Positions 1-48,828 of a stretch of 48,828 nt of DNA are shown here, one piece after another. Each line of letters begins with the position of its first letter. Position 1 is the first letter of the stretch. This stretch comes from a virus (Duplodnaviria > Heunggongvirae > Uroviricota > Caudoviricetes). Under the pieces are notes generated by a model that did not search any database, was not told the origin of the DNA, and saw nothing but the letters and a program-made list of their open reading frames with translations. The DNA lies in IMG/VR virus record IMGVR_UViG_3300045988_154803. One strand, written 5' to 3'. Made by a program: the position numbers and the translations under genes.

Positions 1-51
1 AGATCTACACCTATTAAGTCGTCGGCAGCGTCAGATGTGTATAAGAGACAG
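1..51. other. Sequencing adapter remnant (Illumina P5 tail AGATCTACAC + 8-nt index-like CTATTAAG + Nextera read-1/Tn5 mosaic end TCGTCGGCAGCGTCAGATGTGTATAAGAGACAG); not biological
   Basis: Exact match to the canonical Nextera read-1 adapter and ME sequence as known; genomic sequence resumes at base 52. Confidence 0.9.
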
Positions 52-109
52 ATATAATTCTATGACACTTGCCAGAGAGCATCATGCAATTGGATACCTC
101 CATTGCACT
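52..109. repeat. Terminal overlap: identical to 48771-48828 (circular contig closure)
   Basis: Direct comparison of the first post-adapter 58 bases with the last 58 bases of the window. Confidence 0.9.
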
Positions 110-647
110 GGTTGCCCCAGCCATGCCAGCCATCAGGTAAATCACCGCGAGCAAACAGCTCAATACGAGGAACATCACCTAACAGCCTTACCAGCTTGTC
201 ACGGACCACATCAGGCTTCCGAGAATGCTCCAGACGAGGCGATGTAAACGACTGAATGATCCCCGCATCAAGACGTGTCGGTAGTTTGCCTTTCACTGCA
301 AACAAGCAATCTTCACTGTTTGCACGAGTCATATGCCCCATCCCCATCACCAGCTTATCTGGTTGTCGGCTACCACATTTGTTCCATGTGAAGCCCTTCA
401 TGGTCATCAGCCTGAATCCCCATGCTTTCACCACCAGCAACGCTTCTTCTGGCTGAGTCGGAACCCACCACATGGCCAACAAACACGATTCAGGATTAGC
501 AAGCTGCCAGACAGGAATACGAGCAATCTCCTCAGCTTTCATCGTTGGATACTTAAAACCAGCGCCACGATTCCCATCCTTACACTTGTCTTTGTATTCC
601 CAGGGGGGATCTGCATAAATCAGATTAAACAATGCAATTGCCTCCAT
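60..647 (-). CDS. MT-A70 family (Dam-like) N6-adenine DNA methyltransferase
   Basis: 195 aa; catalytic DPPW motif in context LIYADPPWEY typical of MT-A70-type adenine methyltransferases. Confidence 0.65.
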   Translation of the reverse strand: MEAIALFNLIYADPPWEYKDKCKDGNRGAGFKYPTMKAEEIARIPVWQLANPESCLLAMWWVPTQPEEALLVVKAWGFRLMTMKGFTWNKCGSRQPDKLVMGMGHMTRANSEDCLFAVKGKLPTRLDAGIIQSFTSPRLEHSRKPDVVRDKLVRLLGDVPRIELFARGDLPDGWHGWGNQCNGGIQLHDALWQVS

Positions 648-955
648 GTTAGTTGTGCCTCCGGCGCTTATCTCCGGCAGTCATAACGCTGGTCAGCCCT
701 ACAGCAAACACAACGAAAAGGGCACTAACCAGACTGATTAATGCCCTTGCCTGTTGTGTGCCGGATATCGCCCGACAACGCTGTTTTGGTAACACGGCTA
801 CAGTTCCGCGCCGCTCCAGCTTTTACCCCTTTGCGGATAACAGGCCCTGCCTGTAACTTAGCCCCACGTTCGCCCGAAATGCGCACCAGGCACGCATAAA
901 GATGAGCACGAAGGAAGTAACTCCACCGCGCTTATCTTTATGTGTGAGAGTGAAT

Positions 956-1031
956 TGGTGGCCCCTACCGGATTTGAACCGATGACCGTGCGATTATGAG
1001 TCGCCTGCTCTAACCACTGAGCTAAGGGGCC
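956..1031 (-). tRNA. tRNA with CAU anticodon, ileX/ileY-like (probable tRNA-Ile2 reading AUA after lysidine modification; tRNA-Met not excluded)
   Basis: 76-nt cloverleaf read by hand: acceptor GGCCCCU/AGGGGCC, D arm GCUC-AGUGGUU-AGAGC, anticodon loop CUCAUAA, T arm AUCGG-UUCAAAU-CCGGU, 3' CCA; 5' half matches E. coli ileX as recalled. Confidence 0.85.
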
Positions 1032-1041
1032 ATATTTGATC

Positions 1042-1124
1042 TGTTTGTCTGGTGTGGCGCCGCGCACGAAAATCCCAGCCAATAAATTCAGGATTTTTGG
1101 GCGCGGCGGCATATCAGACAAACA
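1042..1124. repeat. Large imperfect inverted repeat (two ~34-bp arms, ~15-nt spacer) between lysis cassette and tRNA
   Basis: Arm tgtttgtctggtgtggcgccgcgcacgaaaatcc vs reverse complement of ggatttttgggcgcggcggcatatcagacaaaca; about 29 of 34 positions pair. Confidence 0.6.
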
Positions 1125-1200
1125 TGGTTGATGCGTGCGCTCATGAGAAAAGCGCATAGAATGTTGTAACTATATATTTATATAATTATAGAAATATATA

Positions 1201-1410
1201 TTACTTGGGGCAGTTGATTTCCCATGCCCTGTTATGAGCCAGAATATCTTTCTTTGTCTGGCGGTCCATAACATCGATATCGTGATCAGTCAGGTAGATG
1301 GGCTTTACCCAATCACAGGCGGTATCAACCACCACCGGGACGCTTCCACGACTCCCGCAGCTCGCGATCAACATCGTCATCAGCCATATGGTTAACACTC
1401 TGCTGTACAT
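1201..1410 (-). CDS. o-spanin (Rz1-like outer-membrane lipoprotein); true start probably internal (MTMLIASCG)
   Basis: Lipobox LIASC followed by short Pro-rich periplasmic segment; overlaps 3' end of the i-spanin in another frame. Confidence 0.55.
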   Translation of the reverse strand: MYSRVLTIWLMTMLIASCGSRGSVPVVVDTACDWVKPIYLTDHDIDVMDRQTKKDILAHNRAWEINCPK

Positions 1411-1603
1411 TCCCCACCTCTTTTGTCACTTCTATACGCCGCTCCGCAGTGGCTTTTACGGCGGCTGCATTCTCATTAATGCGCTGCTTTTCAGCTTCAT
1501 CTTCGGCCTTTTCTCGCCCCTTCATACGACCAAAACCAAATGCGCCGAATGCAACCAATATAATGGTGCCGATAAATGACAAAACGGCTTTCAAACCAGT
1601 CAT
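1325..1603 (-). CDS. i-spanin (Rz-like, N-terminal TM helix plus charged coiled-coil segment)
   Basis: 92 aa; hydrophobic N-terminus IGTIILVAFGAFGF then K/E-rich helix; directly downstream of endolysin. Confidence 0.5.
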   Translation of the reverse strand: MTGLKAVLSFIGTIILVAFGAFGFGRMKGREKAEDEAEKQRINENAAAVKATAERRIEVTKEVGNVQQSVNHMADDDVDRELRESWKRPGGG

Positions 1604-2142
1604 ACCACCACTCGCTCTTTCATCCAGCCATAGACAAACGACTCATTTGCTTCGCGTTTCTCCGCCAGGTCCAGATAACGGTCGCCCTGCGTACAGTTAA
1701 GGGCCGTCAGCATTACCCGTTCGCCGTCTTTTCCCCGATTCCCAAGATAAGCACGTAATGCCGCAATGGTGCGCGGGCCGATTCGCCCATCCACATCCAT
1801 ATCTGGATACAACTTCCCGCCACGGTTGAAAACATTCAGCCAACGTTGAAGCATCTTCGTAGCCACAGTCGGCCCCATGTTGACGCCCGTATCGCACATC
1901 TCAGCCGCAATATCAGGGGAAAATTGCGCCACCTGGTCAAAACGAGGCCCATACCAATAATCACCTTCAAGAATCATCAGAGCCTGTTCTCGCGTCAGAT
2001 CTCGCATATCGCCACGGTATCCGTGAGCACGGGCAGTATTCTGAGTGATGCCCCACATTGTTGGGCCTCCCTTGTCGTCAGGGTGATCAACATAACCGCC
2101 CTCTTTTCCAAGAATGCTGTTAAAAATCTCATCTTTGGTCAT
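1600..2142 (-). CDS. Endolysin, GH108-type muramidase with C-terminal peptidoglycan-binding domain
   Basis: N-terminal GGYVDHPDDKGGPTMWGIT signature of GH108; C-terminal region resembles PG_binding_3. Confidence 0.85.
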   Translation of the reverse strand: MTKDEIFNSILGKEGGYVDHPDDKGGPTMWGITQNTARAHGYRGDMRDLTREQALMILEGDYWYGPRFDQVAQFSPDIAAEMCDTGVNMGPTVATKMLQRWLNVFNRGGKLYPDMDVDGRIGPRTIAALRAYLGNRGKDGERVMLTALNCTQGDRYLDLAEKREANESFVYGWMKERVVV

Positions 2143-2461
2143 GATTAAATCCTAATGCGTCAACTATCCGCGCCAGATTGCCCCTGAAATACAGAACAAC
2201 GATGCAGATAATCAGATTTCCAATAACCACCAGCCAGTGGGATTCTTGATAAAGACCGAACACATAACGGAAGGGAACATTGGCGTATACAATGACGTAG
2301 ATATAAGCCAGAAAGGAAACAAATGGACGATGCCTGGAGTCTTTCCGTCGATAAAGCATCAGCGCCATTACTATTACTGTGCAAAGCACCGCATTAATCA
2401 GTGCTGACGGGTCACTGCTTACCATTTGAACCCCCTCCACGTAAGCGGGAAAGCATTCCAA
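2129..2461 (-). CDS. Lysis-associated membrane protein (holin/antiholin candidate)
   Basis: 110 aa, multiple hydrophobic helices; located between holin candidate and endolysin. Confidence 0.4.
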   Translation of the reverse strand: MECFPAYVEGVQMVSSDPSALINAVLCTVIVMALMLYRRKDSRHRPFVSFLAYIYVIVYANVPFRYVFGLYQESHWLVVIGNLIICIVVLYFRGNLARIVDALGFNHDQR

Positions 2462-2807
2462 AGATGCTACCGAGATCCTGGCTGTTTACGAACGTGAGGA
2501 TTTTAATGGTCAATGCAGCCACAATAACCGCACCAAGCGCATCCAGAGGACGATCGTTGTAGCTGGTCCATTTGGCAAGAAATGAGCCAACTAACGGCGC
2601 TCCAATCACTCCAACAATGAACGATGTAAAGAAATAGCCAATCAGCTTGAGACGGCTAATATTCACCGCTGTAGCAACATAGAAAACAGCGCCAGCAAAT
2701 GCCCCGAATACAACGCCGTAATCAATACCAGTTGCAATACCAAAAACGCTGGCACCCATCAGGCCACCAGCAGCAACGGCCGTACCGGAAATTGGTTCTG
2801 CTGACAT
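2412..2807 (-). CDS. Putative holin
   Basis: 131 aa, Gly/Ala-rich predicted TM helices, first gene of lysis cassette. Confidence 0.5.
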   Translation of the reverse strand: MSAEPISGTAVAAGGLMGASVFGIATGIDYGVVFGAFAGAVFYVATAVNISRLKLIGYFFTSFIVGVIGAPLVGSFLAKWTSYNDRPLDALGAVIVAALTIKILTFVNSQDLGSIFGMLSRLRGGGSNGKQ

Positions 2808-2819
2808 TGAAATCCTCGT

Positions 2820-2852
2820 TAAAAAAAAAGCCCCGCCGAAAAAGGCAGGGCT
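2820..2852 (-). terminator. Intrinsic terminator (hairpin plus U9 on minus strand) immediately upstream of holin RBS
   Basis: Minus-strand reading gccctgcc-ttttt-cggcggggc followed by nine T; only ~13 nt before holin start. Confidence 0.65.
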
Positions 2853-3193
2853 TCATAAAGCAACAAATTACGCGGTAATCGCTTAACGCAGTTTTACTAC
2901 GTTAAATGAAACACTACACCCAGTTACCATCTAAAACAAGGTTTTCTCATAAAAAAACCTTCAAATCGTGGTTAATCGATCAATAAAAAAACAATACTCA
3001 ACTTTTTGCCAAACGAACATCCCGGCCAGGACTTCCATAATATTCGCCGATATGCCACTGCTTAAGTTGAGTAATCTTCTCCAACTTAACTCCCATAGAG
3101 TCCAGTTTCTGCCATGTTTTCGGTTGTATGTGCTTCATTATCCGCTCTGAATATCTGAATACTGCTCGTAATCGCATGGCTTCTCACTACAGC

Positions 3194-3637
3194 TTATATA
3201 TGTTCACGACTGGACTTCCAGAATATCCACGCCAGATCAACATTCGGGTCCTGGTAATTCATCCCTTCGTTGGCACGAAGCAATAATGTTTCATGGTCTT
3301 TATCACCCGCATGAAACCTGACAAGTGCTTCGAACTTTTCGCGACCATCATCCGGCACTACCGGCTCTGGTTGGATAGTGACGTTGGCAAAGGCAGCACG
3401 CAAACCGGCCTTAATTTCCTCTACTTCATCAGCGCCTAGCGATGAATCTGACAATGCGTGATGGAATGCGTAAGCCATGTCGTCGTTTACTGCAACCGGC
3501 TCGACTTCCAGCGCTGCCAGAGCAATTCGTGCCAGTTCTTCCGCTTCTTCTGCTGGCAGTACAACGTTGCTACTAGGTCCGTATGTTTCGCGCCACTGCT
3601 TGATTGTCAGTAGTCGCTCTTTGGTAATAGTAATCAT
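3194..3637 (-). CDS. Hypothetical acidic protein
   Basis: 147-aa ORF in early operon; no motif recognised. Confidence 0.45.
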   Translation of the reverse strand: MITITKERLLTIKQWRETYGPSSNVVLPAEEAEELARIALAALEVEPVAVNDDMAYAFHHALSDSSLGADEVEEIKAGLRAAFANVTIQPEPVVPDDGREKFEALVRFHAGDKDHETLLLRANEGMNYQDPNVDLAWIFWKSSREHI

Positions 3638-4227
3638 GCCGCGTTTCCTTCTTTCTTATTAACAATTACACCGTCATATATTTCATTAAGGTGCCCTCTC
3701 AACTCCATGCGCCTTAATGCAGATAACATGTAATCGCATTCAACCTGCTTATTTCCAGTAAATGGCTTATCGTCAGGATTACCCCAACAGCAATTTCCCT
3801 TGGGCCACCCATGTACTTTCCGTACTCTTCCGTTAACAACGTGAAGTAATCCCCAGCCGGGAGGTAAATCCTCAACTGAAATAATTCCCGGCTCACTAAT
3901 AAAGAATCGCCAGTCGCCCATGCCAAGTGAGGGATTTTTACGGAAACGCTTTTTGCTATCTGCCAACAAGTCAGCACGAGAACACTTTGCCTCTATCAGG
4001 CATGATGCTGAATTTCTGAATCCCATAGCATCTGGCTGTTCTCCGGTACTGGTTACAGCTATAAAGCGGTCATGAAAGCAAACCTTGAACCCGTTGCGCT
4101 TAAGGAACTTGTACGCAATCTGACAGAGTTCGCGGTGTGTTAACGCCATCTCACTCTCCTTTAGTGCGCAGATAACAGTGGTTTTTCCAGCGGTTTTGCG
4201 CCGCGCTGGGCTTTTTGCAAAAACCAC
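3634..4227 (-). CDS. Hypothetical protein, possible PD-(D/E)XK nuclease-like
   Basis: 197 aa; PDAMGF ... LIEAK arrangement resembles PD-(D/E)xK core; several Cys near C-terminus. Confidence 0.35.
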   Translation of the reverse strand: MVFAKSPARRKTAGKTTVICALKESEMALTHRELCQIAYKFLKRNGFKVCFHDRFIAVTSTGEQPDAMGFRNSASCLIEAKCSRADLLADSKKRFRKNPSLGMGDWRFFISEPGIISVEDLPPGWGLLHVVNGRVRKVHGWPKGNCCWGNPDDKPFTGNKQVECDYMLSALRRMELRGHLNEIYDGVIVNKKEGNAA

Positions 4228-4331
4228 AATCCATCATCCCGTAATGTTTCATTAACCCCATCCGTCGGTTGCTGAGTCTCACCCACTGCCAGACGCCAGG
4301 AGCGTTTCTACGAACTAACAGAATCTTTGCT

Positions 4332-4619
4332 TTACGGTTTTTCATCGTTTGCCCCCTGCTTTTCTGCCCTTAACACCATGCGAGAACCATCATCCAGCTC
4401 CCAATTGATTTCACCGCCTTCTGCCATGACAAGATGCCAAACGAGTTGTGCGGCCTCGTTGGTTACATCACGACCGCGATCATTGCCTACACGGCGTTTT
4501 GTTCCGTCACCTAAATCGCGCATTTTGGCCAACACGATGGTTTTTGATAGCGGTGAAAAACCAAGCTGTAGCCGTGCGGAATTACTCACTGTTTGCCCCC
4601 TGAATACGTTTAAACTCAA
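4332..4619 (-). CDS. Hypothetical protein
   Basis: 95-aa ORF, codirectional in operon. Confidence 0.3.
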   Translation of the reverse strand: MSLNVFRGQTVSNSARLQLGFSPLSKTIVLAKMRDLGDGTKRRVGNDRGRDVTNEAAQLVWHLVMAEGGEINWELDDGSRMVLRAEKQGANDEKP

Positions 4620-5274
4620 TTACCCATACCCACGGGTTAGATAGCCAGTTCTCTTGCCCGTAAATACCGCGCCAGATATCACCAAAACCAACACGATAAA
4701 CAGCTTCCGGCGGCGTAATCTTGTACGTTGCCGGAGATGCGCCTTCCGCTTTGGCATCTGCCTCGCTCATGTCATGCAGCCGCTCCACACGCACGTCGGT
4801 AATTTCCAGCAAAATTCGCGATGCCCATCTCGGCATGTGAATTGACGGGGTCCAGCCCTCAGATGGCTTGCTACTATCTGAGTAATCAGCCTTGTAATCA
4901 CACAGTTCAGAAGCCAGAGAGACACCATCTTTGATTTCCTGAATAACATCGTCATCCAGCCAAAAAGCGTTGAATGTCTCACGTACCCATATGCGATCAC
5001 CAACGTTACCGAACGGGCATAAGCCATGCTCAGGTGCATCCATAACGTGGGTATAGACACCATTGCGTTTCTTTGTCGGTTTACTGATAACCAGGCAGTT
5101 ATCGGCCCTGACATTTTTTACAGGTCGACGAGTCTGCGTCTTCCTGCCTTCGAGGATGGCTCGGACCATCTCATCATTAAAAATCATGCCGCGCTCTTTC
5201 ACCTTGCTCACTTCAACTCCTCCCGACGACGTTCCTGAAGCTCTAGCATTGCAGCTCGGAAATCCTGCCACCAT
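4582..5274 (-). CDS. Hypothetical phage protein (possible ASCH/PUA-like fold); start probably internal at MIFNDEM
   Basis: Motif MIFNDEMVRAILEGRKTQTRR recalled from ASCH-like phage proteins. Confidence 0.45.
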   Translation of the reverse strand: MVAGFPSCNARASGTSSGGVEVSKVKERGMIFNDEMVRAILEGRKTQTRRPVKNVRADNCLVISKPTKKRNGVYTHVMDAPEHGLCPFGNVGDRIWVRETFNAFWLDDDVIQEIKDGVSLASELCDYKADYSDSSKPSEGWTPSIHMPRWASRILLEITDVRVERLHDMSEADAKAEGASPATYKITPPEAVYRVGFGDIWRGIYGQENWLSNPWVWVIEFKRIQGANSE

Positions 5275-5573
5275 TCCTCATCTGCAACGGGGGTGTTTCG
5301 CTCCAGCACCTTGTCCGCATCAGCGATCAGGTTTGCCAGACTATTGTCTGAAATCTTCGTTACCGGAGTCGTTGGTTGCTCAACCTGCCCGATAGGTTTT
5401 ATCGTGCTCAAAAGGAGGCGACGGCGGGAAAGTGGTGCCCCACAACGACGGCCATCTTCCTTGCGATATGTTTCTTTCGGACCAACACACCAGGTTGTCG
5501 GCGTTTCACGCAACTTCACTCTTTTCTCACCATCATTGGTAATGATTATTCCGGTATGGGTTTTGATGCTCAT
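5208..5573 (-). CDS. Hypothetical protein
   Basis: 121-aa ORF; overlaps neighbour in a different frame. Confidence 0.35.
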   Translation of the reverse strand: MSIKTHTGIIITNDGEKRVKLRETPTTWCVGPKETYRKEDGRRCGAPLSRRRLLLSTIKPIGQVEQPTTPVTKISDNSLANLIADADKVLERNTPVADEEWWQDFRAAMLELQERRREELK

Positions 5574-5872
5574 GCCACAGCCCCTCTCAACGGCTTAACT
5601 TTGGCTAATAAGGTGTTAAACAACATGGAGTTAGGATTCATGCCAAATGGCAATTCCGGTTTAGCGGAGTAGTACAGGCAACCATTTATTTTCCTGGTTG
5701 TTATCTGTCCTTCGGCAACCATGCTTCTCAGTCTGCAACGCATAGAGTTCTGCGACACACCAATGTGCTCCGCGATTACGTCCACTTTTGAACATGGGTG
5801 ATCGGTCAGGAAATTAATCACATCTTGGGGGTTAATAATTTTGCGTTTCATTGTCGAGGCGTCCTTATACAT
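5570..5872 (-). CDS. Small winged-helix-like DNA-binding protein (candidate regulator)
   Basis: 100 aa; helix-turn-helix-like VIAEHIGVSQNSMRCRLRSMVAEG; preceded by AT palindrome promoter. Confidence 0.4.
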   Translation of the reverse strand: MYKDASTMKRKIINPQDVINFLTDHPCSKVDVIAEHIGVSQNSMRCRLRSMVAEGQITTRKINGCLYYSAKPELPFGMNPNSMLFNTLLAKVKPLRGAVA

Positions 5873-5897
5873 TTATATAAATATATAATTCTATATA

Positions 5898-5917
5898 CGG
5901 CGGGAGACGTCCCGCCG
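5898..5917 (-). terminator. Hairpin terminator after DUF3560-like gene
   Basis: cggcggga-gacg-tcccgccg perfect 8-bp stem followed by AT-rich palindromic tract. Confidence 0.45.
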
Positions 5918-5928
5918 TAGGCTTACTG

Positions 5929-6996
5929 TCAGGCTTTCAATAGCGATTCTTTTAGATATCGGGCATCAGCCAGGGCGTTTGGAGTAATCTTGCGAACCCA
6001 TGCATTACGGGTTGGACTCCACTTAAAGGCGCGTGATTTAAGCAGCGAACGAATGTTTGCCTCTGGTTTGCCAGGGAAATAAAACAGGATGCGGTTATCC
6101 TCTGGATCTATCTCCATAGAAAAGCCGTCGTATTCTTCGCGCTGTGCTCCTGTTACAGACTTGACCGATTCAAGCTCCTTAATACGGCTCTGTAGTCGTT
6201 TGATTTCGGCGTTATTGTTGCTCAGTGCGTATGAAGGGAATCCGATGCGCCCACAGAAATCTCCGGCCAGTAACTCTTTGGCTTCGCTTTCTGTAAACCT
6301 GAGATCGATTAATGCAGAAAGCTGCTGTAATTGGTCTTTTTTGTATTTGCGAATGGCCTTATTTGCGGCCTTCATTTTGACGTGTGACTTCATGCAGCCT
6401 TGCAGCTTACGAAGCAACTTAAATAGCGCATCAGGATCATCAGACGAAATTCCATTACGACCAACACCTGCGGCTTTGCTCTCGTAGTGTGATGCTTTAC
6501 TTTCGCATTCAACAAACGCTTTTCTTAATAACGCATCAGCTTTAGACAAACGGCGGCGATGGCCTTTCGCGCTATAATGGTCAACTAAAATCGGCTGGCC
6601 TAACGGGATCACATCCAACAGGTCATGCGCTCGCTTATGCGCTACCGCACCTTCTTTTCTGGCTTTTTCTGCACGAGCAATATATCGGGCAAGACGCGCG
6701 TTCTGGCGTTCCTGATAGGTGTTTACGTAATCATCTCCGCGCTGCTGCTGTTCAAGCCATGCTTTGCGCAGATCTTCTGTTACGTCCACCAGCTCCGCAG
6801 GGATACAACCAGTTTGGGCTTCATAAGAGTAACCATCCTCATAGATGCGCCCATCGTCTTCAACAAAGAAAAAGGTTTCGTGCTCATCGCTTTTGACCAT
6901 ACGACCATTAACATGGCGTAATAGGTAGCCAGTATCAGTGCTTAACAGGCTGTTAGGGTTGTTGATCCAGTCAGAAATAATTTCTTGTTTATTCAT
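5929..6996 (-). CDS. DUF3560-like protein (unknown function; family seen on plasmids)
   Basis: 355 aa; motif GQPILVDHYSAKGHRRR recalled from DUF3560; first gene after leader cassette A. Confidence 0.5.
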   Translation of the reverse strand: MNKQEIISDWINNPNSLLSTDTGYLLRHVNGRMVKSDEHETFFFVEDDGRIYEDGYSYEAQTGCIPAELVDVTEDLRKAWLEQQQRGDDYVNTYQERQNARLARYIARAEKARKEGAVAHKRAHDLLDVIPLGQPILVDHYSAKGHRRRLSKADALLRKAFVECESKASHYESKAAGVGRNGISSDDPDALFKLLRKLQGCMKSHVKMKAANKAIRKYKKDQLQQLSALIDLRFTESEAKELLAGDFCGRIGFPSYALSNNNAEIKRLQSRIKELESVKSVTGAQREEYDGFSMEIDPEDNRILFYFPGKPEANIRSLLKSRAFKWSPTRNAWVRKITPNALADARYLKESLLKA

Positions 6997-7112
6997 CAGA
7001 TTTCTCCGGTTTAACCAGGGCGGGTATCGCTCGGTTTCGGGTATAACCTTAGGAAATTTTTTCCCACCTGTAAAGCGCTTTTTATATAAATCTATAATTA
7101 TATATTTATAGA
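6997..7112 (-). promoter_or_regulatory. Conserved promoter/5' leader cassette, copy A
   Basis: Near-identical to 16461-16580 and 48667-48785; ends at the start codon with GGAG RBS; contains TATAATTATA palindrome. Confidence 0.6.
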
Positions 7113-10948: not shown

Positions 10949-11617
10949 ATGGAGTCTCGACAAATGACTATCTCTGTAGGTATTTTCAACGGAAAAGGCG
11001 GCGTAACCAAATCAACAATTGCCCGTGCTTTAGCAGTTGCTTATGCAAAGGCTGGCTGGAATGTATGCCTGATCGATATGGATGTGCTTAACGGAACGGT
11101 AACGCGTTGGGTACAACGCAGAATGGCCAACAATATCGAACCAGCAATCGCGGCGCAGCCGTGCGGCACACCATCACAAGTCCAGAAAATCATCGAATCA
11201 GAAGTATACGACCTGGTTATCGTTGATGGCGGTGCCTACGCATCTGAATCAGTACCGAAGCTCTCTGAATTTCTGGATATGGTTATTTTGCCAACCAGAT
11301 TCTCTACCGATGACCTGGAAACCACCGTTAACACAGCTCACGGCATCGTTAAAAAGGGTGTACCAATCAAGAAAATTTGCATGGTGTTTTCCGGCGCGGC
11401 TGAAAACGAAGCTGACTATATTGAAGCCCAAGAGTACCTGGCTAATACGCCATACTTTGTTGTCGATAAGTACATTCCCCACAAGCCAGCTCTGAGCAAA
11501 GCTCAGGATAAGGGCTTAAGCCTCATTGAGTGCTCATACGTTGCGCCACGCAAAAAGGCAGACGACGTTATTCAGGGGATTATCAACCAGCTTGAGGCTC
11601 TGACTACTGCCGCGTAA
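10949..11617 (+). CDS. parA: ParA-family partition ATPase (small, type Ib-like); likely start at 10964
   Basis: Deviant Walker A GKGGVTKST; ~217 aa without N-terminal HTH. Confidence 0.85.
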   Translation: MESRQMTISVGIFNGKGGVTKSTIARALAVAYAKAGWNVCLIDMDVLNGTVTRWVQRRMANNIEPAIAAQPCGTPSQVQKIIESEVYDLVIVDGGAYASESVPKLSEFLDMVILPTRFSTDDLETTVNTAHGIVKKGVPIKKICMVFSGAAENEADYIEAQEYLANTPYFVVDKYIPHKPALSKAQDKGLSLIECSYVAPRKKADDVIQGIINQLEALTTAA

Positions 11618-12129: not shown

Positions 12130-12153
12130 ATAAAAAAGCCCCCGAAGGGGCCT
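12130..12153. terminator. Hairpin terminator (U-run on minus strand, A-run on plus)
   Basis: gcccccgaaggggc stem-loop flanked by A6 on plus strand. Confidence 0.5.
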
Positions 12154-12725
12154 AATCGCTACTTGCTGCTAATGTTTATCGTCACATTCAGAGCGTTATC
12201 AGTAATCTTCCAACCCTCCCCATGTGGCGTAAACAAAGCTCCAGTAACAACGATAAAAATACACATACAGTATTTTTTCATTGTATGGCCCTTACAGGCC
12301 GTTTCACGGCATCCCCACCGACGAAAACAACGCGAGAGCAAGCACGGCTGCTTGTGCTTGCATGTACGGCAACGGAGAATCCTCCCCTAAAGTCGGTGCC
12401 CGGGTGCGAATCGGCGGGAAGGTCCACAGGTATTTTACGATTATTTTAAGATTAGTAATAGGAAAGAAATTAAACGAAAAAACTCGTTTATTTTCACAAA
12501 ATCAGTAACCTACCCACAATCTGTGAGTTTGCAGGCACAACAAGAACCACAATTTTTTGAAGCATAATAGTGGACTATTATTACCTTTTGGGTAAAATTA
12601 ACTTGCTGCTTGTGCTTGCGTGGTTGTTTATACAACAACGTAATGCTGAAAGGACCGCGAATCCGATCAGCACGAAAGAACCGTCCTCAATAGGGCGGTT
12701 TTTTTGTTTCTGCCTACCAATAAAC

Positions 12726-12773: not shown

Positions 12774-12873
12774 TGCGCCATTGGTGGACACTTTCCGAGC
12801 CGTAGCAAAATCTACGGCCGGGATTGGAACCCCGATAATCATCATGGCGCATACCGCGTTAGCGGTTTTTTTA
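12774..12873 (+). ncRNA. Candidate small RNA (~100 nt) ending at intrinsic terminator
   Basis: Candidate promoter TTGTCT-N17-TATTGA; internal hairpin ccgtagcaaaatctacgg; terminator ccgc-gtta-gcgg + T7 at 12854-12872. Confidence 0.3.
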
Positions 12874-13037
12874 TGCGTAAAGCACTGCTACACCCAAATT
12901 ATGGTGGGGCGTGCGGGGGAGTCGTAAGACTCGCCGGATTCCATGGTGACCGGTAGTTCCAACCCTGTACGTCTCACCACCCAATGATTGGAACCAGACG
13001 GTGGTGAGTATCCTTAACCTTTAAGGGAACTATCACC

Positions 13038-16079: not shown

Positions 16080-16460
16080 TTACTTAACGAGGAATAAAAA
16101 TGGTTTATTGTTCGGCGGTGTAATCGGGGCTGGCTCGCTTTTGCTCATGCGATCAGTGTACCAGGCCAACTCCTTGTCAAAGTAAGCCTGATTAAAATAG
16201 GCCATGAATGTAGTTTCAAATCCATAACGACCGCTAATACGCAGCATCTGATTGCCGTTCTCTGTTTCCAGATATACCTGGGCACGTTCCTGATTCTCCT
16301 TCAGCCAGGTTAAAGCCTCATCGCATGAGGACACACGATACTCATCATCGTAGCAGTCATCGATGCGGCTTGAGGAAGAACGGCAAATCACGCCAACAGA
16401 ACCAGCCAGGATAGTTTGAATTTTAAGGAAAGCGTTTTTGCGGATTTTAATCATGCTCAT
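16080..16460 (-). CDS. Hypothetical protein (first gene after leader cassette B)
   Basis: 126-aa ORF starting exactly at end of conserved leader. Confidence 0.5.
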   Translation of the reverse strand: MSMIKIRKNAFLKIQTILAGSVGVICRSSSSRIDDCYDDEYRVSSCDEALTWLKENQERAQVYLETENGNQMLRISGRYGFETTFMAYFNQAYFDKELAWYTDRMSKSEPAPITPPNNKPFLFLVK

Positions 16461-16580
16461 CGGGTTATCTCCGGTTTAACCAGGGCGGGTATCGCTCGGT
16501 TTCGGGTATAACCTTAGGAATTTTTTTCCCACCTGTAAAGCACTTTTTATATAAATATATAATTATATAATTCTATGAGC
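16461..16580 (-). promoter_or_regulatory. Conserved promoter/5' leader cassette, copy B
   Basis: Near-identical to copies A and C; palindrome TATATAATTATATA at 16556-16569. Confidence 0.6.
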
Positions 16581-16582
16581 AC

Positions 16583-19894: not shown

Positions 19895-20449
19895 TCAATG
19901 ATTCCCAGCCGGAAACCTGCGGTAAAGCGTGGATAAGGTAACATCGAAGATAATCGCTATCCGCTTACGTGAAACACCATTCGCAATAAGCCTTCCGATC
20001 TGTTCCCATTGCTCTGGTGCCAATTTTGAGCGGCGTCCTCCTATCCTGCCGTTAGCCCTTGCCACCGCCAATCCTGCACGCGTTCTTTCAATCATATTTT
20101 CCCGCTCCATCTCTGCGACTGCACTCAGCATCGTGTAGGCAAAGCGGCCAATTGAAGTGCTAATTTTTATCCCTTCCGTAATCGAAATAAACTCAATGTT
20201 GTTTGATAAAAAATGGTTAAGTAAATCAACAAGATGAATCAGAGAACGCCCCATTCGGTCCAGCTTCCAGACAATAACCGTATCGCCCGGCCGTAACACC
20301 TTAAGTAGCTTATCAAGTCCTGGTCGTTTTGATTTAGCACCGGATATTTTATCTTCAAAAATCTGGTCACATCCTGAACTCCTGAGCGCCTCCAGTTGTA
20401 ATTCCAAATTCTGGTCAAAAGTTGACACCCTCGCATAACCATATTGCAT
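19895..20449 (-). CDS. Gin/Hin/Cin/Pin-family serine DNA invertase
   Basis: 184 aa; YARVSTFDQ catalytic Ser motif, WKLDRMGRS, C-terminal HTH; alignable along full length to Mu Gin as recalled. Confidence 0.95.
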   Translation of the reverse strand: MQYGYARVSTFDQNLELQLEALRSSGCDQIFEDKISGAKSKRPGLDKLLKVLRPGDTVIVWKLDRMGRSLIHLVDLLNHFLSNNIEFISITEGIKISTSIGRFAYTMLSAVAEMERENMIERTRAGLAVARANGRIGGRRSKLAPEQWEQIGRLIANGVSRKRIAIIFDVTLSTLYRRFPAGNH

Positions 20450-20513: not shown

Positions 20514-20539
20514 TTCGCAAAAACCTCGGTTTACAGGAA
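20514..20539. repeat. Left inversion crossover site (gix/hix-like, inverted orientation)
   Basis: Reverse complement reads TTCCTGTAAACCGAGGTTTTTGCGAA; inverted repeat of right site. Confidence 0.8.
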
Positions 20540-20563
20540 ACGGTAAACCGAGCCGGGAACGCC

Positions 20564-21400
20564 GTGCAAAAAAATGGCGATACCTTGTCCGGTGGACTTA
20601 CTTTTGAAAACGACTCAATCCTTGCCTGGATTCGAAATACTGACTGGGCAAAGATTGGATTTAAAAATGATGCCGACAGCGATACTGATTCATATATGTG
20701 GTTTGAAACAGGTGACAACGGCAATGAATATTTCAAATGGAGAAGCCGCCAGAGTACCACAACAAAAGACCTGATGACGCTGAAATGGGATGCACTAAAT
20801 ATTCTTGTTAATGCCGTCATTAATGGCTGTCTTGGAGTTGGTACGACGAATGCACTAGGTGGTAGCTCTATTGTCCTTGGTGATAATGATACCGGATTTA
20901 AACAGAATGGAGACGGTATTCTTGATGTTTATGCTAACAGTCAGCGTGTATTCCGTTTTCAGAATGGAGTGGCTATTGCTTTTAAAAATATTCAGGTAGG
21001 GGATAGTAAAAAGTTCTCGCTATCCAGCTCTAACACATCCACGAAGAATATTACCTTTAATTTATGGGGTGCTTCCAACCGTCCAGTGGTTGCAGAGTTA
21101 GGCGATGAGTCCGGATGGCATTTCTATAGCCAGCGAAATACAGATAACTCGGTAATATTTGCTGTTAATGGTCAGATGCAACCCAGCAACTGGGGGAATT
21201 TTGATTCCCGCTATGTGAAAGATGTTCGCCTGGGTACGCGAGTTGTTCAATTGATGGCGCGAGGTGGTCGTTATGAAAAAGCCGGACACACGATTACCGG
21301 ATTAAGAATCATTGGTGAAGTAGATGGCGATGATGAAGCCATCTTCAGGCCGATACAAAAGTACATCAATGGCACATGGTATAACGTTGCGCAGGTGTAA
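20564..21400 (+). CDS. Alternative tail-fibre C-terminal variable domain (promoterless; fused to constant N-terminus after inversion)
   Basis: Frame open from crossover site; C-terminus ...RPIQKYINGTWYNVAQV parallels expressed fibre C-terminus ...RPIQYCINGTWYNAGSI. Confidence 0.75.
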   Translation: MQKNGDTLSGGLTFENDSILAWIRNTDWAKIGFKNDADSDTDSYMWFETGDNGNEYFKWRSRQSTTTKDLMTLKWDALNILVNAVINGCLGVGTTNALGGSSIVLGDNDTGFKQNGDGILDVYANSQRVFRFQNGVAIAFKNIQVGDSKKFSLSSSNTSTKNITFNLWGASNRPVVAELGDESGWHFYSQRNTDNSVIFAVNGQMQPSNWGNFDSRYVKDVRLGTRVVQLMARGGRYEKAGHTITGLRIIGEVDGDDEAIFRPIQKYINGTWYNVAQV

Positions 21401-21403
21401 GTT

Positions 21404-21931
21404 ATGCAGCATTTAAAGAACATTAAGTCAGGTAATCCAAAAACAAAAGAACAATATCAGCTAACAAAGAATTTTGATGTTATCTGGTTATGGTCCGAAG
21501 ACGGTAAAAACTGGTATGAGGAAGTAAATAACTTTCAGGACGACACCATAAAGATTGTATACGACGAAAATAATATTATTGCCGCCATCACCAAAGATGC
21601 CTCCACGCTTAACCCTGAAGGTTTTAGCGTTGTCGAGGTTCCTGATATTACCGCCAACCGACGTGCTGATGACTCAGGTAAATGGATGTTTAAGGATGGT
21701 GCTGTGATTAAGCGGATTTATACGGCTGACGAACAGCAACAACAGGCCGAATCACAAAAGGCCGCGTTGATTTCCGAAGCTGAATCAGTCATCCAGCCGC
21801 TGGAACGCGCTGTCAGGCTGAATATGGCAACAGACGAGGAACGCACACGACTGGAAGCATGGGAACGCTACAGCGTTCTGGTCAGCCGTGTGGATACGGC
21901 AAATCCTGAATGGCCACAAAAGCCTGAATAA
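21404..21931 (+). CDS. Tail fibre assembly chaperone (alternative orientation)
   Basis: Paralog of 21960-22493 product ([22 protein letters not shown] vs [22 protein letters not shown]). Confidence 0.75.
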
Positions 21932-21959
21932 AAATTAAGGCCCGATAGCGGGCCTTGTT

Positions 21960-22493
21960 TCATTCTGGTTGTTCTGGAAACGTTACTGGCAGGCTGGAGG
22001 TGTCTGTGGATTCGACCTTCTGCGCATAGAGCATCCACTCGGTTAATTTTTGTTTATTCTCGTTGGAAATGATACCCAGCCGTAGCTGTGAGTCCCATAG
22101 CTGGGTTTTATCCCTGACGAGCTGTAGCAGGCTTTGCTTTTCATTTTCCGCTTGTTGCCTCTGCTCTTCCTCGGTATAAGTTCGCTTTATCACTACGCCA
22201 TCTTTGAACAACCATTTCCCCGAAATATCAGCCCGGCGATTTGCTGTAATATCAGGTAATTCAACGACGCTTGCGCCTTCCGGATTAATTGCTGAAACAT
22301 CCTTTTCAATACAAATAATAACGCCGTTATGGTCATAGACCATTTTCAAAGTGTCTGGCTGGAAATTCTTTTGTTCCTCATACCAGTTTTTTCCATCATC
22401 TGAATAAAGCCATTTGATGTTAAATTGCTTTGTTAGCTGGTATTGCTCTTTTGTTTTAGGGTTGCCAGCAGTAATGTTTTTTAAGTGCATCAT
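21960..22493 (-). CDS. Tail fibre assembly chaperone (currently expressed orientation)
   Basis: Immediately downstream of tail fibre gene; Tfa-like sequence. Confidence 0.8.
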   Translation of the reverse strand: MMHLKNITAGNPKTKEQYQLTKQFNIKWLYSDDGKNWYEEQKNFQPDTLKMVYDHNGVIICIEKDVSAINPEGASVVELPDITANRRADISGKWLFKDGVVIKRTYTEEEQRQQAENEKQSLLQLVRDKTQLWDSQLRLGIISNENKQKLTEWMLYAQKVESTDTSSLPVTFPEQPE

Positions 22494-22495
22494 CG

Positions 22496-24814
22496 TTAAA
22501 TACTCCCCGCGTTATACCACGTCCCATTAATGCAATACTGAATTGGCCTTGCCTGTGTTGTATCAATTAATTCATCACGGTTTCCGTTAACTGAACCCGT
22601 AACGACATAACCTGACCTGTCAGACCAGCCGGGGCCATTCCATGTCTGAACAGATGACAGACCGCCAAGGCGAATACCTGTAATAAACCTTGAGTTACAT
22701 TCTGCCTGCGTATATGCACCAACATCTCCCGCAGAGGGTTTGCGGGTTGTGGTGTAAAACTCTGACCAGTCAGCTTCAAAGCCATAACCATCACGCGCTG
22801 AACGATAAAAGATTCCGCCATTTCTGTAATTCACGCGGAACTGTGCAGCAGGGCAGCTCCCCGTATTCATATTGAAGTGGAGGATTAATGTCGATGCGCC
22901 ACCAATATTTGCGTTATAGACCCCGCTATTCCAGTTCCAGCCAACAGCTTTATCATTTCCGACAGTGCTTCCTGTTTGCCCTAAAGCAAATGCAGGTTGT
23001 TGATTTTTCGTGTTGTAGTCTCGTCGCCAGCCAGGAGCGTAAGCATCACCATGATTAATATAAGTGAATTGAGCGTTAGTAATTCCTCCACCGCTGGACG
23101 TGCTCGGCGTGGTAACGCGTATGGTCATTGCGCCGCGAGTGCCAATAACTTCCACCACAGCACCTGCAAGACAAATATTTCCGCAACCTGTATCTGTAAT
23201 GACCTTATTATTTGCATAAGCCCATGAGCCTTTGCACATCCAGTAAGGATGGTTAAATGCTCCCTGACTCTCCAGCCACGAAATAAATTGCGCGGTTGTC
23301 CAGACCTGACTATCGCCACCAATATCCAGCCATGCGCTATATGCGCGGCAGGCCCCAATATTTTTGGTGAAGGTATCTTTTCCCGGAATATCTGCGCCGT
23401 TCTGGTTTTTCTGTAATGCGCCAGAAGCCTGATTTACCGTTTCCTGTAAACCGAGGTATTCGATAACGGCAGCAACGGTCGATTTCGCAAGAATATCCCG
23501 CCCGACTTTTGTCAGGGTTGCCAGGCTGGCGACATCATTCCCCGTAAAATACGGAAACTTGTCTGCCGCAGTAGCAAGCCCGGCCAGCGCCGTCAGGGTG
23601 GCATCTTTCGGTTGCTTACCCGCAAGCGCGTTAGTCATGGTGGTCGCAAAATTCGGGTCGTTTCCCAGCGCCGCCGCTAACTCGTTCAGCGTATTCAGTG
23701 CGTCAGGTGACGAGTCCACGAGGGCAGCGATCGCAGCCATAACGAAAGCCGTGCTTGCGATTTGGGTATTATTCGTTCCCTGTCGCGCAGTTGGCGTTGT
23801 TGGCGTTCCGGTCAACGCAGGACTGTTTAAGGGCGCTTTCTTGTTCGTTTCATCCATTACCGCCTTGACCGCTTTCGATGTCGCGGCCAGTGTTTCAGAC
23901 GTGCTGTTGGTGGAACTACTGAGCTGAGTTATTCCCCTTACAGTCAGTGAAGCTACAGGCACATTTGTTATCTGCTCCCACGAATGCGTGTGATTGGACG
24001 GAGCCTTTCCGGCCGCAAGATCATACGCTGCCTTAACAGCCTTTGGTGTTGCTGCTAGCGTTTCAGACGTGCTGTTGGTGGCACTACTGAGCTGAACAAT
24101 CCCTTTTCGCGCTGTGGTAGCGTCCTGTGCGGTGTATTTGCCATTAGCCAGGTCATATGCTGCCTTAACAGCCTTAGGCGTCGCAGCAAGCGTTTCAGAC
24201 GAGCTATTGGTGGCGCTGCTAAGTTGAACAAAGCCTTTTGAGGTTAAAGTTGCATCAGGATGATTACGTGATTGTTCATGTTTCACAATGGCTTGCTTAA
24301 GCCGCTTTGCTGAAACAGCAAGGGAATCATCTGTACCGTCATCAATTTCTTGTTCATTGGCAAATCTTGCAACCCCAACAACAGTTTCGGTTGCGGGAGG
24401 ATTAATAAACTCAATATCACCAAATGTAATATTTTTAGTATCAAGAGTCTTGATTGCTATGTCACTTGATATTAAAGCAATAGTAGATGATGCTTTATTT
24501 ATTATTGCTTGTTCTTGCGAGTATACAGCAAACAACGTTCCCTTATTTGTATACAATCCTATTGTATGGACAACATACTCATCTTTACTATCATCCTTCG
24601 CCGTTACATGAATTGTATCAGGGGAAACAACTTTGCCACCTATTGTGGTAAGTCGTTTTATTTCGTTTGTTATATTTGTTTGTGAAGTTGACGTGACATA
24701 ATATCTACTACCTAAACCAACAGAAACAATCTCAACTTTATTTGTTCCTGTTTTGTTGGCATTAACCAGCTCCTGACGCCCGGCGTCAGTCATCGTAAAT
24801 AATAATTTACTCAC
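22496..24814 (-). CDS. Tail fibre protein (constant N-terminal ~450 aa outside, variable C-terminus inside invertible segment)
   Basis: 772 aa; repeated SSATNS(T/S)SETLAATPKAVKAAYD collar-like motifs; crossover site lies inside the ORF. Confidence 0.85.
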   Translation of the reverse strand: MSKLLFTMTDAGRQELVNANKTGTNKVEIVSVGLGSRYYVTSTSQTNITNEIKRLTTIGGKVVSPDTIHVTAKDDSKDEYVVHTIGLYTNKGTLFAVYSQEQAIINKASSTIALISSDIAIKTLDTKNITFGDIEFINPPATETVVGVARFANEQEIDDGTDDSLAVSAKRLKQAIVKHEQSRNHPDATLTSKGFVQLSSATNSSSETLAATPKAVKAAYDLANGKYTAQDATTARKGIVQLSSATNSTSETLAATPKAVKAAYDLAAGKAPSNHTHSWEQITNVPVASLTVRGITQLSSSTNSTSETLAATSKAVKAVMDETNKKAPLNSPALTGTPTTPTARQGTNNTQIASTAFVMAAIAALVDSSPDALNTLNELAAALGNDPNFATTMTNALAGKQPKDATLTALAGLATAADKFPYFTGNDVASLATLTKVGRDILAKSTVAAVIEYLGLQETVNQASGALQKNQNGADIPGKDTFTKNIGACRAYSAWLDIGGDSQVWTTAQFISWLESQGAFNHPYWMCKGSWAYANNKVITDTGCGNICLAGAVVEVIGTRGAMTIRVTTPSTSSGGGITNAQFTYINHGDAYAPGWRRDYNTKNQQPAFALGQTGSTVGNDKAVGWNWNSGVYNANIGGASTLILHFNMNTGSCPAAQFRVNYRNGGIFYRSARDGYGFEADWSEFYTTTRKPSAGDVGAYTQAECNSRFITGIRLGGLSSVQTWNGPGWSDRSGYVVTGSVNGNRDELIDTTQARPIQYCINGTWYNAGSI
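23441..23466. repeat. Right inversion crossover site (gix/hix-like)
   Basis: TTCCTGTAAACCGAGGTATTCGATAA, close to Mu gixL as recalled. Confidence 0.85.
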
Positions 24815-40230: not shown

Positions 40231-42087
40231 CTATATGGTTACGCCTTTACTTATAACTCTACGGCGTCTTCTACGTATACCTGACGAGTTCTGCACATAC
40301 ACATTACCTCGCATTTCCTGTTCGGCAAGCCAGTTAAAATTAGGGTTCAGAATTTCCATCGCGGCAGTTGCATAGTTACGGCAATCAAGAGGCTCGTTAC
40401 GCTCGTAGACTTTCACCCACTTTTCTTTTGTCTGCCCATTTTTATATTCAAATATTTTCTTCTCTGATAATAATCCTTTAAAGTATTCGGTATCATATCC
40501 TCTGTCAGAATCTAATGGGAAATGCATATAACCAGGACCAGGATCATGTAGTTTAATTCTTGCCATGATGGTCCCTTTACCATCATCAACCCCCAAATTA
40601 AACAACATAGCACCCACACGGTTATTATTACTTGGCTTTCCTATAAATGGTAAACCTACCCCACCACGCCCCCTGATAGAGTATATTCGCCTTGATTCTC
40701 TCGGCTTAGTAAAGCGATATACCTCTGTCGTAAAATGCCCACCAGAGTCAATACAAACGGAAGAAATCTGTAATTTTCGACCGTCACGGAATGACCAGCT
40801 ACGGAGTAAGTATTCATCAAGTTGTTTCCAGACAACATCTTGTGCGGGATCACCTGGGAATATTTTATATTCTATCCCCCATGACTCCTTACCTTTTCCC
40901 CAACCGACCAATTCACAAACTAAATACGTGTCCTGTACGTCAACACCAGCACTTAACAATAAAACATCATCTGGTAAAAACTCTTCAAACCTTATTCTGC
41001 GTTGCAACAAGTATTCAGGATCGATATCGTCTTTAGCATCCTCTTTCCATGGCTCACCCAGCTTAAGGTTAATAAACTCCATTAATCCATTTTTATCGCG
41101 GTTTCTGGTTGCTTCCGTAAATTCTTCAACCAGCTCTGACAATGCAACCCACGGGGAGTAAAGACTGTTAATATGAAAACCAACAATACCTTTAACTCCA
41201 GTATGTTCAGCTATCCATACCCCCTTCGCCAACCAATCAACGTCTGGTTTACCAGATCCGCGCATAATCCCGCCGCACTCACAGCACTCATATCTGGCCG
41301 TTTCCGGTAACGCCTCACCTGAATCGCTCTTATCCCATCTGACTTGCGACCATTTCATCACCTGCATGGTGCCACAACATGGGCAAGGAACATGGTAGTA
41401 ACGCTGATCGGAGAGCTTAAACCACTTGTGGATTTTGCTCGTTTCCTCCAAAACAGGAGTAGAAACAAAAACTTTCTTACGATTATGAAAGTTGGTAGTA
41501 CGCTGAATACCTAGTTTTAGTGGGTCGCCCTCCTGCGTCACACCGTAACGATCAATCTCATCAGCTAACAGTATTCGAATTGGCCTGGATGCAAGACCTG
41601 CTGGGGAATTAGCACCAACAAGTGCTATATATCCACCAGCGTAATGCTTCATACGTATAGTCGTGCTGGACTTTTTGGCTGCACCGCGCCCCTCTTTCCC
41701 TTCATGCAGCTTGTGTTTCAAACCAGGGGAATATTTGAACGTCGGATCAATACGCTCTTTTGAAAAAGCCTCAGCCGCCTCTACCGTTGGATAAATCATC
41801 AACTGAGGAGATGGCTCCTGATCTGCAAAGTAACCCATAACATTTAGCTGTAATTCGGATTTACCAATTTGCGAGCTACATTGCATCACTACTGTTTCTG
41901 TATCAGCGTCACCAATAACATCCATTGGTTCACGCAAATATGGCACTCGGCTTGTACGCCACGGCCCTGGCTCTGGAGACGTTCCCGGCGCTACATGACG
42001 ATACTTATCAGCCCATTCGGAAACAGTTAGCCGTGATTTAGGGCGAAGCGCACGGAAAAAAGCGGTGCTCCATACTGTTTCGCCCAT
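40231..42087 (-). CDS. Terminase large subunit (lambda gpA-like)
   Basis: 618 aa; N-terminal ...TVSEWADKYRHV resembles gpA ...TAVEWADANYYL; ATPase/nuclease size class. Confidence 0.9.
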   Translation of the reverse strand: MGETVWSTAFFRALRPKSRLTVSEWADKYRHVAPGTSPEPGPWRTSRVPYLREPMDVIGDADTETVVMQCSSQIGKSELQLNVMGYFADQEPSPQLMIYPTVEAAEAFSKERIDPTFKYSPGLKHKLHEGKEGRGAAKKSSTTIRMKHYAGGYIALVGANSPAGLASRPIRILLADEIDRYGVTQEGDPLKLGIQRTTNFHNRKKVFVSTPVLEETSKIHKWFKLSDQRYYHVPCPCCGTMQVMKWSQVRWDKSDSGEALPETARYECCECGGIMRGSGKPDVDWLAKGVWIAEHTGVKGIVGFHINSLYSPWVALSELVEEFTEATRNRDKNGLMEFINLKLGEPWKEDAKDDIDPEYLLQRRIRFEEFLPDDVLLLSAGVDVQDTYLVCELVGWGKGKESWGIEYKIFPGDPAQDVVWKQLDEYLLRSWSFRDGRKLQISSVCIDSGGHFTTEVYRFTKPRESRRIYSIRGRGGVGLPFIGKPSNNNRVGAMLFNLGVDDGKGTIMARIKLHDPGPGYMHFPLDSDRGYDTEYFKGLLSEKKIFEYKNGQTKEKWVKVYERNEPLDCRNYATAAMEILNPNFNWLAEQEMRGNVYVQNSSGIRRRRRRVISKGVTI

Positions 42088-42092
42088 GAGGT

Positions 42093-42653
42093 TTATTCTT
42101 CCTGCTTAATAAATCGGGATTCCTGGAGCGCCTGAAGCGCAAAATTAATCTCGTCTTCAATAATGCGTTCGATCTCCCTGGCTGTTTTGCCTTCACAACG
42201 GGGAGCTGCTCTTGGAGCAATACTAAATAAGCGGCTACGCAATTCATTAGCTGCCAGAAATGCATCATCCCTGACCGCATCTTTAGCGATGAGAGAGCCT
42301 TCCTTTTCTTCAAATTCAAGGCGTTTCAGCTTTGCCTGATAAATTTTTTCTGCGGTCTTAGCCTTGTTGAATTGCACCGCAACACCGGAAGTACCACCAG
42401 CTAATCCGGCATCATCAGCGGGTAACTCTGGTTGTTCCGAAGATATCCCATGCCCTCTTTTTCCATTTTCAGCAGATACCTCACGACCAACCTGTCGGCT
42501 CGCTTCATAAGCCGCACTGGCTTTATCAAAATCCAGCTTGCCGCTTTTCAGCACTGGAATGCGACCGGAACGACAGAGCTTCGTAACCATTGCCGGAGAA
42601 ATACCTTTCCGGCGAGCAAACTCTGACTTACTGACGATGGCCATTACTTGCAA
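42093..42653 (-). CDS. Terminase small subunit (N-terminal HTH)
   Basis: 186 aa; MAIVSKSEFARRKGISPAMVTKLCRSGRI HTH; upstream of large subunit. Confidence 0.6.
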   Translation of the reverse strand: MQVMAIVSKSEFARRKGISPAMVTKLCRSGRIPVLKSGKLDFDKASAAYEASRQVGREVSAENGKRGHGISSEQPELPADDAGLAGGTSGVAVQFNKAKTAEKIYQAKLKRLEFEEKEGSLIAKDAVRDDAFLAANELRSRLFSIAPRAAPRCEGKTAREIERIIEDEINFALQALQESRFIKQEE

Positions 42654-48400: not shown

Positions 48401-48666
48401 TCATCATCTCCTGCCGCACATACAACCTCACAAAAAACATCAGCGGAATGTTTCTTTTTGAATGAATGGCGCTCAAAACCGCACTCAATATCAGGCGCAA
48501 AAACATCCACCACATACGGTCTTTCAGAATGTTTGTTTTCCCAACGATAAACCGTAGTGACGTTGAAATGTTTTAACGCTTCACGGAACTCAACGCTGCC
48601 AGTCAGGTTTTTTGAGGTCAGGTATTGCAGGAGGTTTTTTACTACTTCACGGTCTTGTACTTTCAT
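48397..48666 (-). CDS. Hypothetical protein (first gene after leader cassette C)
   Basis: 89-aa ORF starting exactly at end of conserved leader. Confidence 0.45.
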   Translation of the reverse strand: MKVQDREVVKNLLQYLTSKNLTGSVEFREALKHFNVTTVYRWENKHSERPYVVDVFAPDIECGFERHSFKKKHSADVFCEVVCAAGDDE

Positions 48667-48785
48667 CGGGTTATCTCCGGTTTAACCAGGGCGGGTATCG
48701 CTCGGTTCCGGGTATAACCTTAGGAAATTTTTTCCCACCTGTAAAGTACTTTTTATATAAATATATAATTATATAATTCTATGAC
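48667..48785 (-). promoter_or_regulatory. Conserved promoter/5' leader cassette, copy C
   Basis: Near-identical to copies A and B; palindrome TATATAATTATATA at 48762-48775. Confidence 0.6.
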
Positions 48786-48828
48786 ACTTGCCAGAGAGCA
48801 TCATGCAATTGGATACCTCCATTGCACT
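48771..48828. repeat. Terminal overlap identical to 52-109
   Basis: Direct comparison. Confidence 0.9.

Follow-up and report, generated by a model that had tools for sequence, protein, structure and literature searches.

The mosaic end was engineered by combining the outside and inside ends of IS50, and adapter contamination at contig ends belongs to a class of artefact that is screened with UniVec/VecScreen and FCS-adaptor. PMC13182109 describes an analogous survey, of Oxford Nanopore adapters in GenBank; a literature search for surveys of Nextera contamination returned incidental mentions only. Literature matches to the peptide strings DVYKRQ and LSLIHI were Tn5 insertion-mutagenesis and transposon-fusion papers. 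The oligonucleotides that concern us here are given in the oligo table of PMC12630345, in which primer S518 is AATGATACGGCGACCACCGAGATCTACACCTATTAAGTCGTCGGCAGCGTC, ME_S5 is TCGTCGGCAGCGTCAGATGTGTATAAGAGACAG, and ME_bottom is CTGTCTCTTATACACATCT. The S518 index is likewise given as CTATTAAG in PMC7589761.

We analyzed a stretch of 48,828 nucleotides from an IMG/VR virus record (IMGVR_UViG_3300045988_154803), which is referred to as the window at its full length. Its closest deposited relative was Yersinia phage vB_YpM_39 (OR545053.1, circular, 49,027 bp), with 99.9% identity over window 52–6000. Window 52–48770 is a circular RepA/ParA phage-plasmid of ~48.7 kb, of a type that is common in E. 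coli and is already known biology. Judged from its sequence, window 1–51 is a synthetic Nextera adapter, that is, a technical artefact without biological function and of an ordinary, well-known class.

Make-up of the terminal block and its effect on annotation

In a script check, window 1–32 agreed at every base with the 3′-most 32 nt of primer S518 (AATGATACGGCGACCACCGAGATCTACAC-CTATTAAG-TCGTCGGCAGCGTC), and window 19–51 agreed at every base with the oligonucleotide ME_S5. The earlier note had divided the block into a P5 tail, an index, a read-1 stub, and a mosaic end. Our division was identical and was matched by the published oligonucleotides, and what the note had called an index-like block of 8 nt proved to be the catalogued index S518 (PMC12630345 and PMC7589761). 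The arrangement was that of a Nextera i5-side adapter: the 3′ part of P5 (…GATCTACAC) abutted the index, which is a catalogued i5 8-mer; the stub TCGTCGGCAGCGTC was followed by the exact mosaic end AGATGTGTATAAGAGACAG; the block was terminal and pointed inward, with the 3′ end of the mosaic end on the insert; and independent sequences of the same locus, 13 in number, were without it. At the tagmentation joint, the 3′ G of the mosaic end (base 51) was fused to genome base 52, and the genome sequence after the joint begins ATATAATTC…. No P7, read-2, TruSeq, or further mosaic-end fragments were found elsewhere in the window on either strand (script check), and the exact adapter–genome junction gave 0 matches in IMG/VR, JGI metagenome contigs, and GTDB genome contigs. 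The coordinates of the features are summarized in Table 1.

Table 1 Positions of the adapter parts, the open reading frames at the joint, and the circle-closing overlap in the window.
Feature	Position	Strand	Basis or remark
3′ end of the Illumina P5 flow-cell sequence (…GAGATCTACAC), 10 nt, AGATCTACAC	1–10	+	Exact against the P5 portion of S518 (PMC12630345)
i5 index CTATTAAG of Nextera XT Index Kit v2 primer S518	11–18	+	PMC12630345 and PMC7589761
Nextera adapter-A/read-1 primer stub, 14 nt, TCGTCGGCAGCGTC	19–32	+	Exact against ME_S5 and the 3′ end of S518
Synthetic hyperactive Tn5 mosaic end, transferred strand, 19 nt, AGATGTGTATAAGAGACAG	33–51	+	0 mismatches to ME
Spurious ORF, 54 aa; C-terminus …VSYTHLTLPTT is translated adapter	14–178	−	
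Spurious ORF, 70 aa; the mosaic end supplies its ATG and initial residues MCIRDR (6 codons)	35–247	+	Antisense to the MT-A70 gene
Start of the genuine genome sequence, with copy 1 of the 58-nt overlap	52–109	+	Equal to 48771–48828; continuous with 48770 in independent assemblies
MT-A70 family methyltransferase gene, 195 aa, real and intact	60–647	−	ORF; PF05063 on identical products
True 51 nt preceding base 52 in the circle	48720–48770	+	Equal to vB_YpM_39 upstream of record position 44081 and to the ENA scaffold
Second copy of the 58-nt overlap, assembly redundancy	48771–48828	+	Exact repeat of 52–109

Two open reading frames arose from the adapter. The one on the plus strand at 35 had been called artefactual in the earlier note, and this was borne out, as the frame exists with its ATG within the mosaic end. 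In the true sequence, the same frame has a stop just upstream and its start would be the ATG at base 62. Going beyond the note, we found that this ORF is antisense to the real MT-A70 gene and hence spurious regardless, and that no real gene is damaged. Neither of the two adapter-derived proteins had an exact copy in a collection of 15 billion proteins. The MT-A70 protein had an exact copy on 727 contigs; the distance between the stop codon of its gene and the adapter joint is 8 nt, and the final 50 nt of the gene are duplicated at 48779–48828. The untrimmed adapter is thus the source of artificial ORFs (MCIRDR… and …VSYTHLTLPTT), of a contig end that is not real, and of a duplicated gene fragment, as well as of spurious similarity to all other adapter-contaminated records.

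The same block was found in other records. A scan of IMG/VR with the pattern GATCTACAC-N8-read1-ME detected at least 120 contigs carrying the same P5-tail/i5/read-1/ME block at their ends. Among the matches listed, all 125 of 125 occurrences were located 70 nt or less from a contig end and pointed inward, and the 8-mers were those of the standard i5 set with one exception, which was 1 mismatch away from S515. Certain metagenome project ids, for example 3300045988, 3300009124, and 3300040985, recurred often among the matches listed.

The circular genome and its true join

The last 58 nt of the window are an exact repeat of the 58 nt that follow the adapter, and the contig therefore represents a circle of 48,719 bp. 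This is the structure of a circular replicon with terminal redundancy: the repeat is direct and exact, and the relatives are continuous across the join and have been deposited as circular records. The start of the overlap coincided with the end of the adapter (base 52), a coincidence with a probability of ~2e-5 were the two boundaries unrelated. Two points were added to the earlier note in this way, namely that the 58-nt terminal copy closes the circle and that the real upstream bases are found at the other end of the window. To obtain the complete 48,719-bp circle, window 1–51 and one copy of the 58-nt overlap need to be removed from the record.

Thirteen independent sequences crossed the true join (48770|52) without adapter: vB_YpM_39, ten contigs retrieved through the neighboring MT-A70 gene, one ENA scaffold, and one NCBI contig. 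When the window was read as …48770 + 52…, 1397 of 1400 positions were identical to vB_YpM_39 in an ungapped comparison, and vB_YpM_39 carries the sequence of window 48720–48770 at the place of the adapter. Nine of the ten contigs found through the MT-A70 gene showed 0–7 mismatches per 200 nt across the join. The tenth (L005) showed 51 mismatches in an ungapped comparison; this excess is probably due to a 1-base indel, because its downstream genes were shifted by one base. Both the mosaic end and the read-1 stub were absent from all ten of these contigs.

The ENA scaffold was reached by a different route. In an exact-protein look-up, two proteins of the window were rare, each being present on only 4 contigs, and they led to assembly ERZ28649631 (VATT16-1_SAMN05826927_METAG-scaffold_100, 48,804 bp). 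The contigs with these proteins come from JGI/IMG, Logan, and ENA, and one of the two proteins is present in Logan SRR4305415, a candidate run for sample SAMN05826927. This scaffold was 100.000% identical to the circularized window over 20,657 nt and crossed the join without adapter; it is broken elsewhere than the window, at the invertible tail-fibre segment. The NCBI contig ACBPOD010000041.1 crossed the join as well. The claims that window 1–51 is not genome and that the record is an untrimmed assembly contig were upheld by these data: the adapter stands at base 1 and is absent from the 13 independent sequences of the locus, which carry the bases of window 48720–48770 there instead. The check for independent support across the adapter site, which had been proposed in the same note, also favored its reading, as the independent sequences gave different bases at that place.

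The tagmentation joint was located at the edge of one copy of a ~120-nt block. Three copies of this block, at 95–97% identity, were present at 48663–48770 + 52–64 (across the join), 16457–16582, and 6993–7104. Every copy ends at a minus-strand ATG, these being the starts of an 89-aa ORF, a 126-aa ORF, and a DUF3560 gene. The upstream part of the block is AT-rich, and the leader that follows is GC-rich and contains GGAG as a ribosome-binding site; the RNA fold of the block was only mildly stable (z = −2.5). In a promoter/terminator scan over the true join, 1 promoter-like site was found where 1.6 were expected, and there were 0 terminators. Among deposited phages, the block occurred in three Yersinia vB_YpM records only, with 3 copies in each. 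We tentatively consider that the block might be an undescribed shared promoter/leader cassette co-regulating three leftward operons, though this is rather doubtful. Window 1–51 holds nothing novel, and the ~120-nt block is the only unexplained biology at this spot. The three-copy repeat was also considered as the cause of the contig break and was rejected, since the longest exact run between copies (~45 nt) is shorter than the 58-nt overlap.

Origin of the adapter and alternative explanations

Overall, the best explanation of the record is almost certainly that untrimmed Nextera library-preparation DNA was joined to the circular phage-plasmid by assembly. A Nextera (Tn5 tagmentation) library would have been prepared from DNA containing a circular 48,719-bp phage-plasmid of the E. 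coli type, and Tn5 would have put the adapter-A mosaic end onto the genome at the present base 52 in at least one fragment. As the sequence identity indicates, the index and P5 would have been attached by PCR with the index primer S518. Since priming of read 1 takes place at the mosaic end, read 1 itself never includes that end; the present orientation would therefore come only from the reverse complement of a read-through read 2. The chemistry suggests a short insert, in which read 2 ran through to the i5-side adapter so that the block entered as its reverse complement, and it also suggests that the read-2 reads were left without adapter trimming. Read-through would predict read-2 reads in which CTGTCTCTTATACACATCTGACGCTGCCGACGACTTAATAGGTGTAGATCT is soft-clipped at base 52.

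With regard to assembly, the geometry is consistent with the adapter k-mers having formed a dead-end tip of the graph that met the circular path at the 58-mer from base 52. The assembler would then have put out the tip, one full turn of the circle, and the closing 58-mer in this order. A tip, a circle, and a closing 58-mer so arranged would account for a terminal duplication that starts precisely at the end of the adapter. SPAdes uses odd k values, with which the even overlap length of 58 does not agree; this length would fit k−1 for k = 59. The adapter points to a Nextera-type library with the i5 index S518, which could help to trace the run.

Several other explanations were weighed against this one. 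The adapter may have been introduced by another technical route, either in a chimeric adapter-bearing read or by being appended in scaffolding or post-processing. That the overlap has an even length (58) leaves room for such a route, but it is the correct 3′ end of the adapter (…AGACAG) that meets the genome, and the adapter points inward, as in a true tagmentation joint; the same geometry was seen in 125 of 125 IMG/VR occurrences among the matches listed; and the circle-closing overlap starts exactly at the joint, as a graph tip predicts. This route fits the geometry less well than read-through and a graph tip, and we regard it as unlikely. A chance resemblance within genuine genome sequence was given no probability at all. 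The 33-mer at 19–51 had a single occurrence in the window, also at a tolerance of 3 mismatches, none of 100 dinucleotide shuffles had any match at the same tolerance, the exact expectation under a uniform model was 1.3e-15, and the homologues differ from the window at this place.

Two further explanations would give the joint a biological meaning. One is that a natural Tn5/IS50 transposon has inserted into the phage genome and that window 33–51 is one of its termini, which is conceivable in that the mosaic end is derived from IS50 ends and differs from the natural outside end by 3 mismatches. However, window 33–51 had 0 mismatches to the synthetic mosaic end, compared with 3 to the outside and 4 to the inside end, and this 19-mer is fused to the Illumina-only read-1 stub, the index S518, and the P5 tail. 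A transposase gene, a second end, and a 9-bp target duplication were all absent, no second mosaic end or outside-end-like or inside-end-like copy was found on either strand of the window, and the site was uninterrupted in 13 independent copies of the element. A natural transposon end is thus vanishingly improbable. The other is that base 52 marks a DNA end with a biological role, for example a replication or nick site or the cos/pac terminus of a packaged linear phage genome; the contig does begin there, and the intergenic block around the site is AT-rich and has three copies per genome. Against this, the adapters are inserted within duplex DNA in Tn5 tagmentation, and ends that already exist are not tagged by ligation. 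Synteny with the ATCC 25922 plasmid and with vB_EcoM-613R2 places the terminase genes at approximately window 40231–42653, roughly 6 kb from the join, and the independent identical assembly continues across this site, its own break being at the invertible tail-fibre segment. We consider a meaningful end at base 52 to be very improbable.

The phage-plasmid and comparison with known systems

The phage-plasmid encodes an IncFII-type RepA, ParA, ParB-like proteins, and a RelE/HigB-type toxin–antitoxin pair, and its virion genes comprise lambda-like head and terminase genes and a P2-like contractile tail. Tail-fibre genes were located at 20564–24814 and a Hin/Gin-type resolvase (invertase) gene at 19895–20449 (−). 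Inverted repeats at 20520–20574 and 23406–23460, with perfect cores of ~25 nt, flank an invertible tail-fibre segment beside the invertase gene. In scaffold_100 of ERZ28649631, the ~2.9-kb tail-fibre segment was opposite in orientation to that of the window. Because this independent ENA assembly of an identical element has the segment reversed, our results suggest that both orientations exist in the population.

Some other features of the genome were also observed. Matches at the Rfam gathering level lay side by side at 12132–12427 (−), 12799–12872 (+), and 12897–12984 (+), corresponding to ryfA, isrK, and C4 antisense RNA, and this cluster sits between the ParA gene and an ORF6N/Rha regulator gene. 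C4 is the antisense RNA of the immI immunity region of P1/P7. A tRNA-Met (CAT) gene was found at 956–1031 (−), with the lysis cassette on one side and the MT-A70 gene on the other. The exact product of the ParA ORF at 10949–11617 (+) is recorded as 'MAG: ParA family protein [Bacteroides heparinolyticus]' (MCF0257749.1), a name which suggests that the present E. coli phage-plasmid ended up in a Bacteroides MAG through mis-binning. A 147-aa hypothetical protein encoded at 3194–3637 (−) is named 'Valyl-tRNA synthetase' in some records. In many draft genomes, the element assembles as a separate contig of 42–50 kb.

When the first half of the window (52–24000) was used as the query, no plasmid records with a coverage of 80% or more were found. 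The free plasmid of ATCC 25922 (NZ_CP009073.1, 48,488 bp) has the same gene order as the window, and in comparison with the 48-kb RepA/ParA phage-plasmids of E. coli the accessory regions are mosaic. As for the terminal block, window 33–51 resembles the terminal repeats of IS50/Tn5 in its length of 19 nt and at most positions but, unlike them, is accompanied by no transposon body. Compared with primer S518, the initial 19 nt of P5 (AATGATACGGCGACCACCG) are absent from the window, so that the contig begins within P5. Finally, the window shares its adapter block with the adapter-contaminated IMG/VR contigs, whereas, at the locus level, the combination of a tip, a full circle, and a closing overlap was seen in 0 of the matches listed and in the window only.
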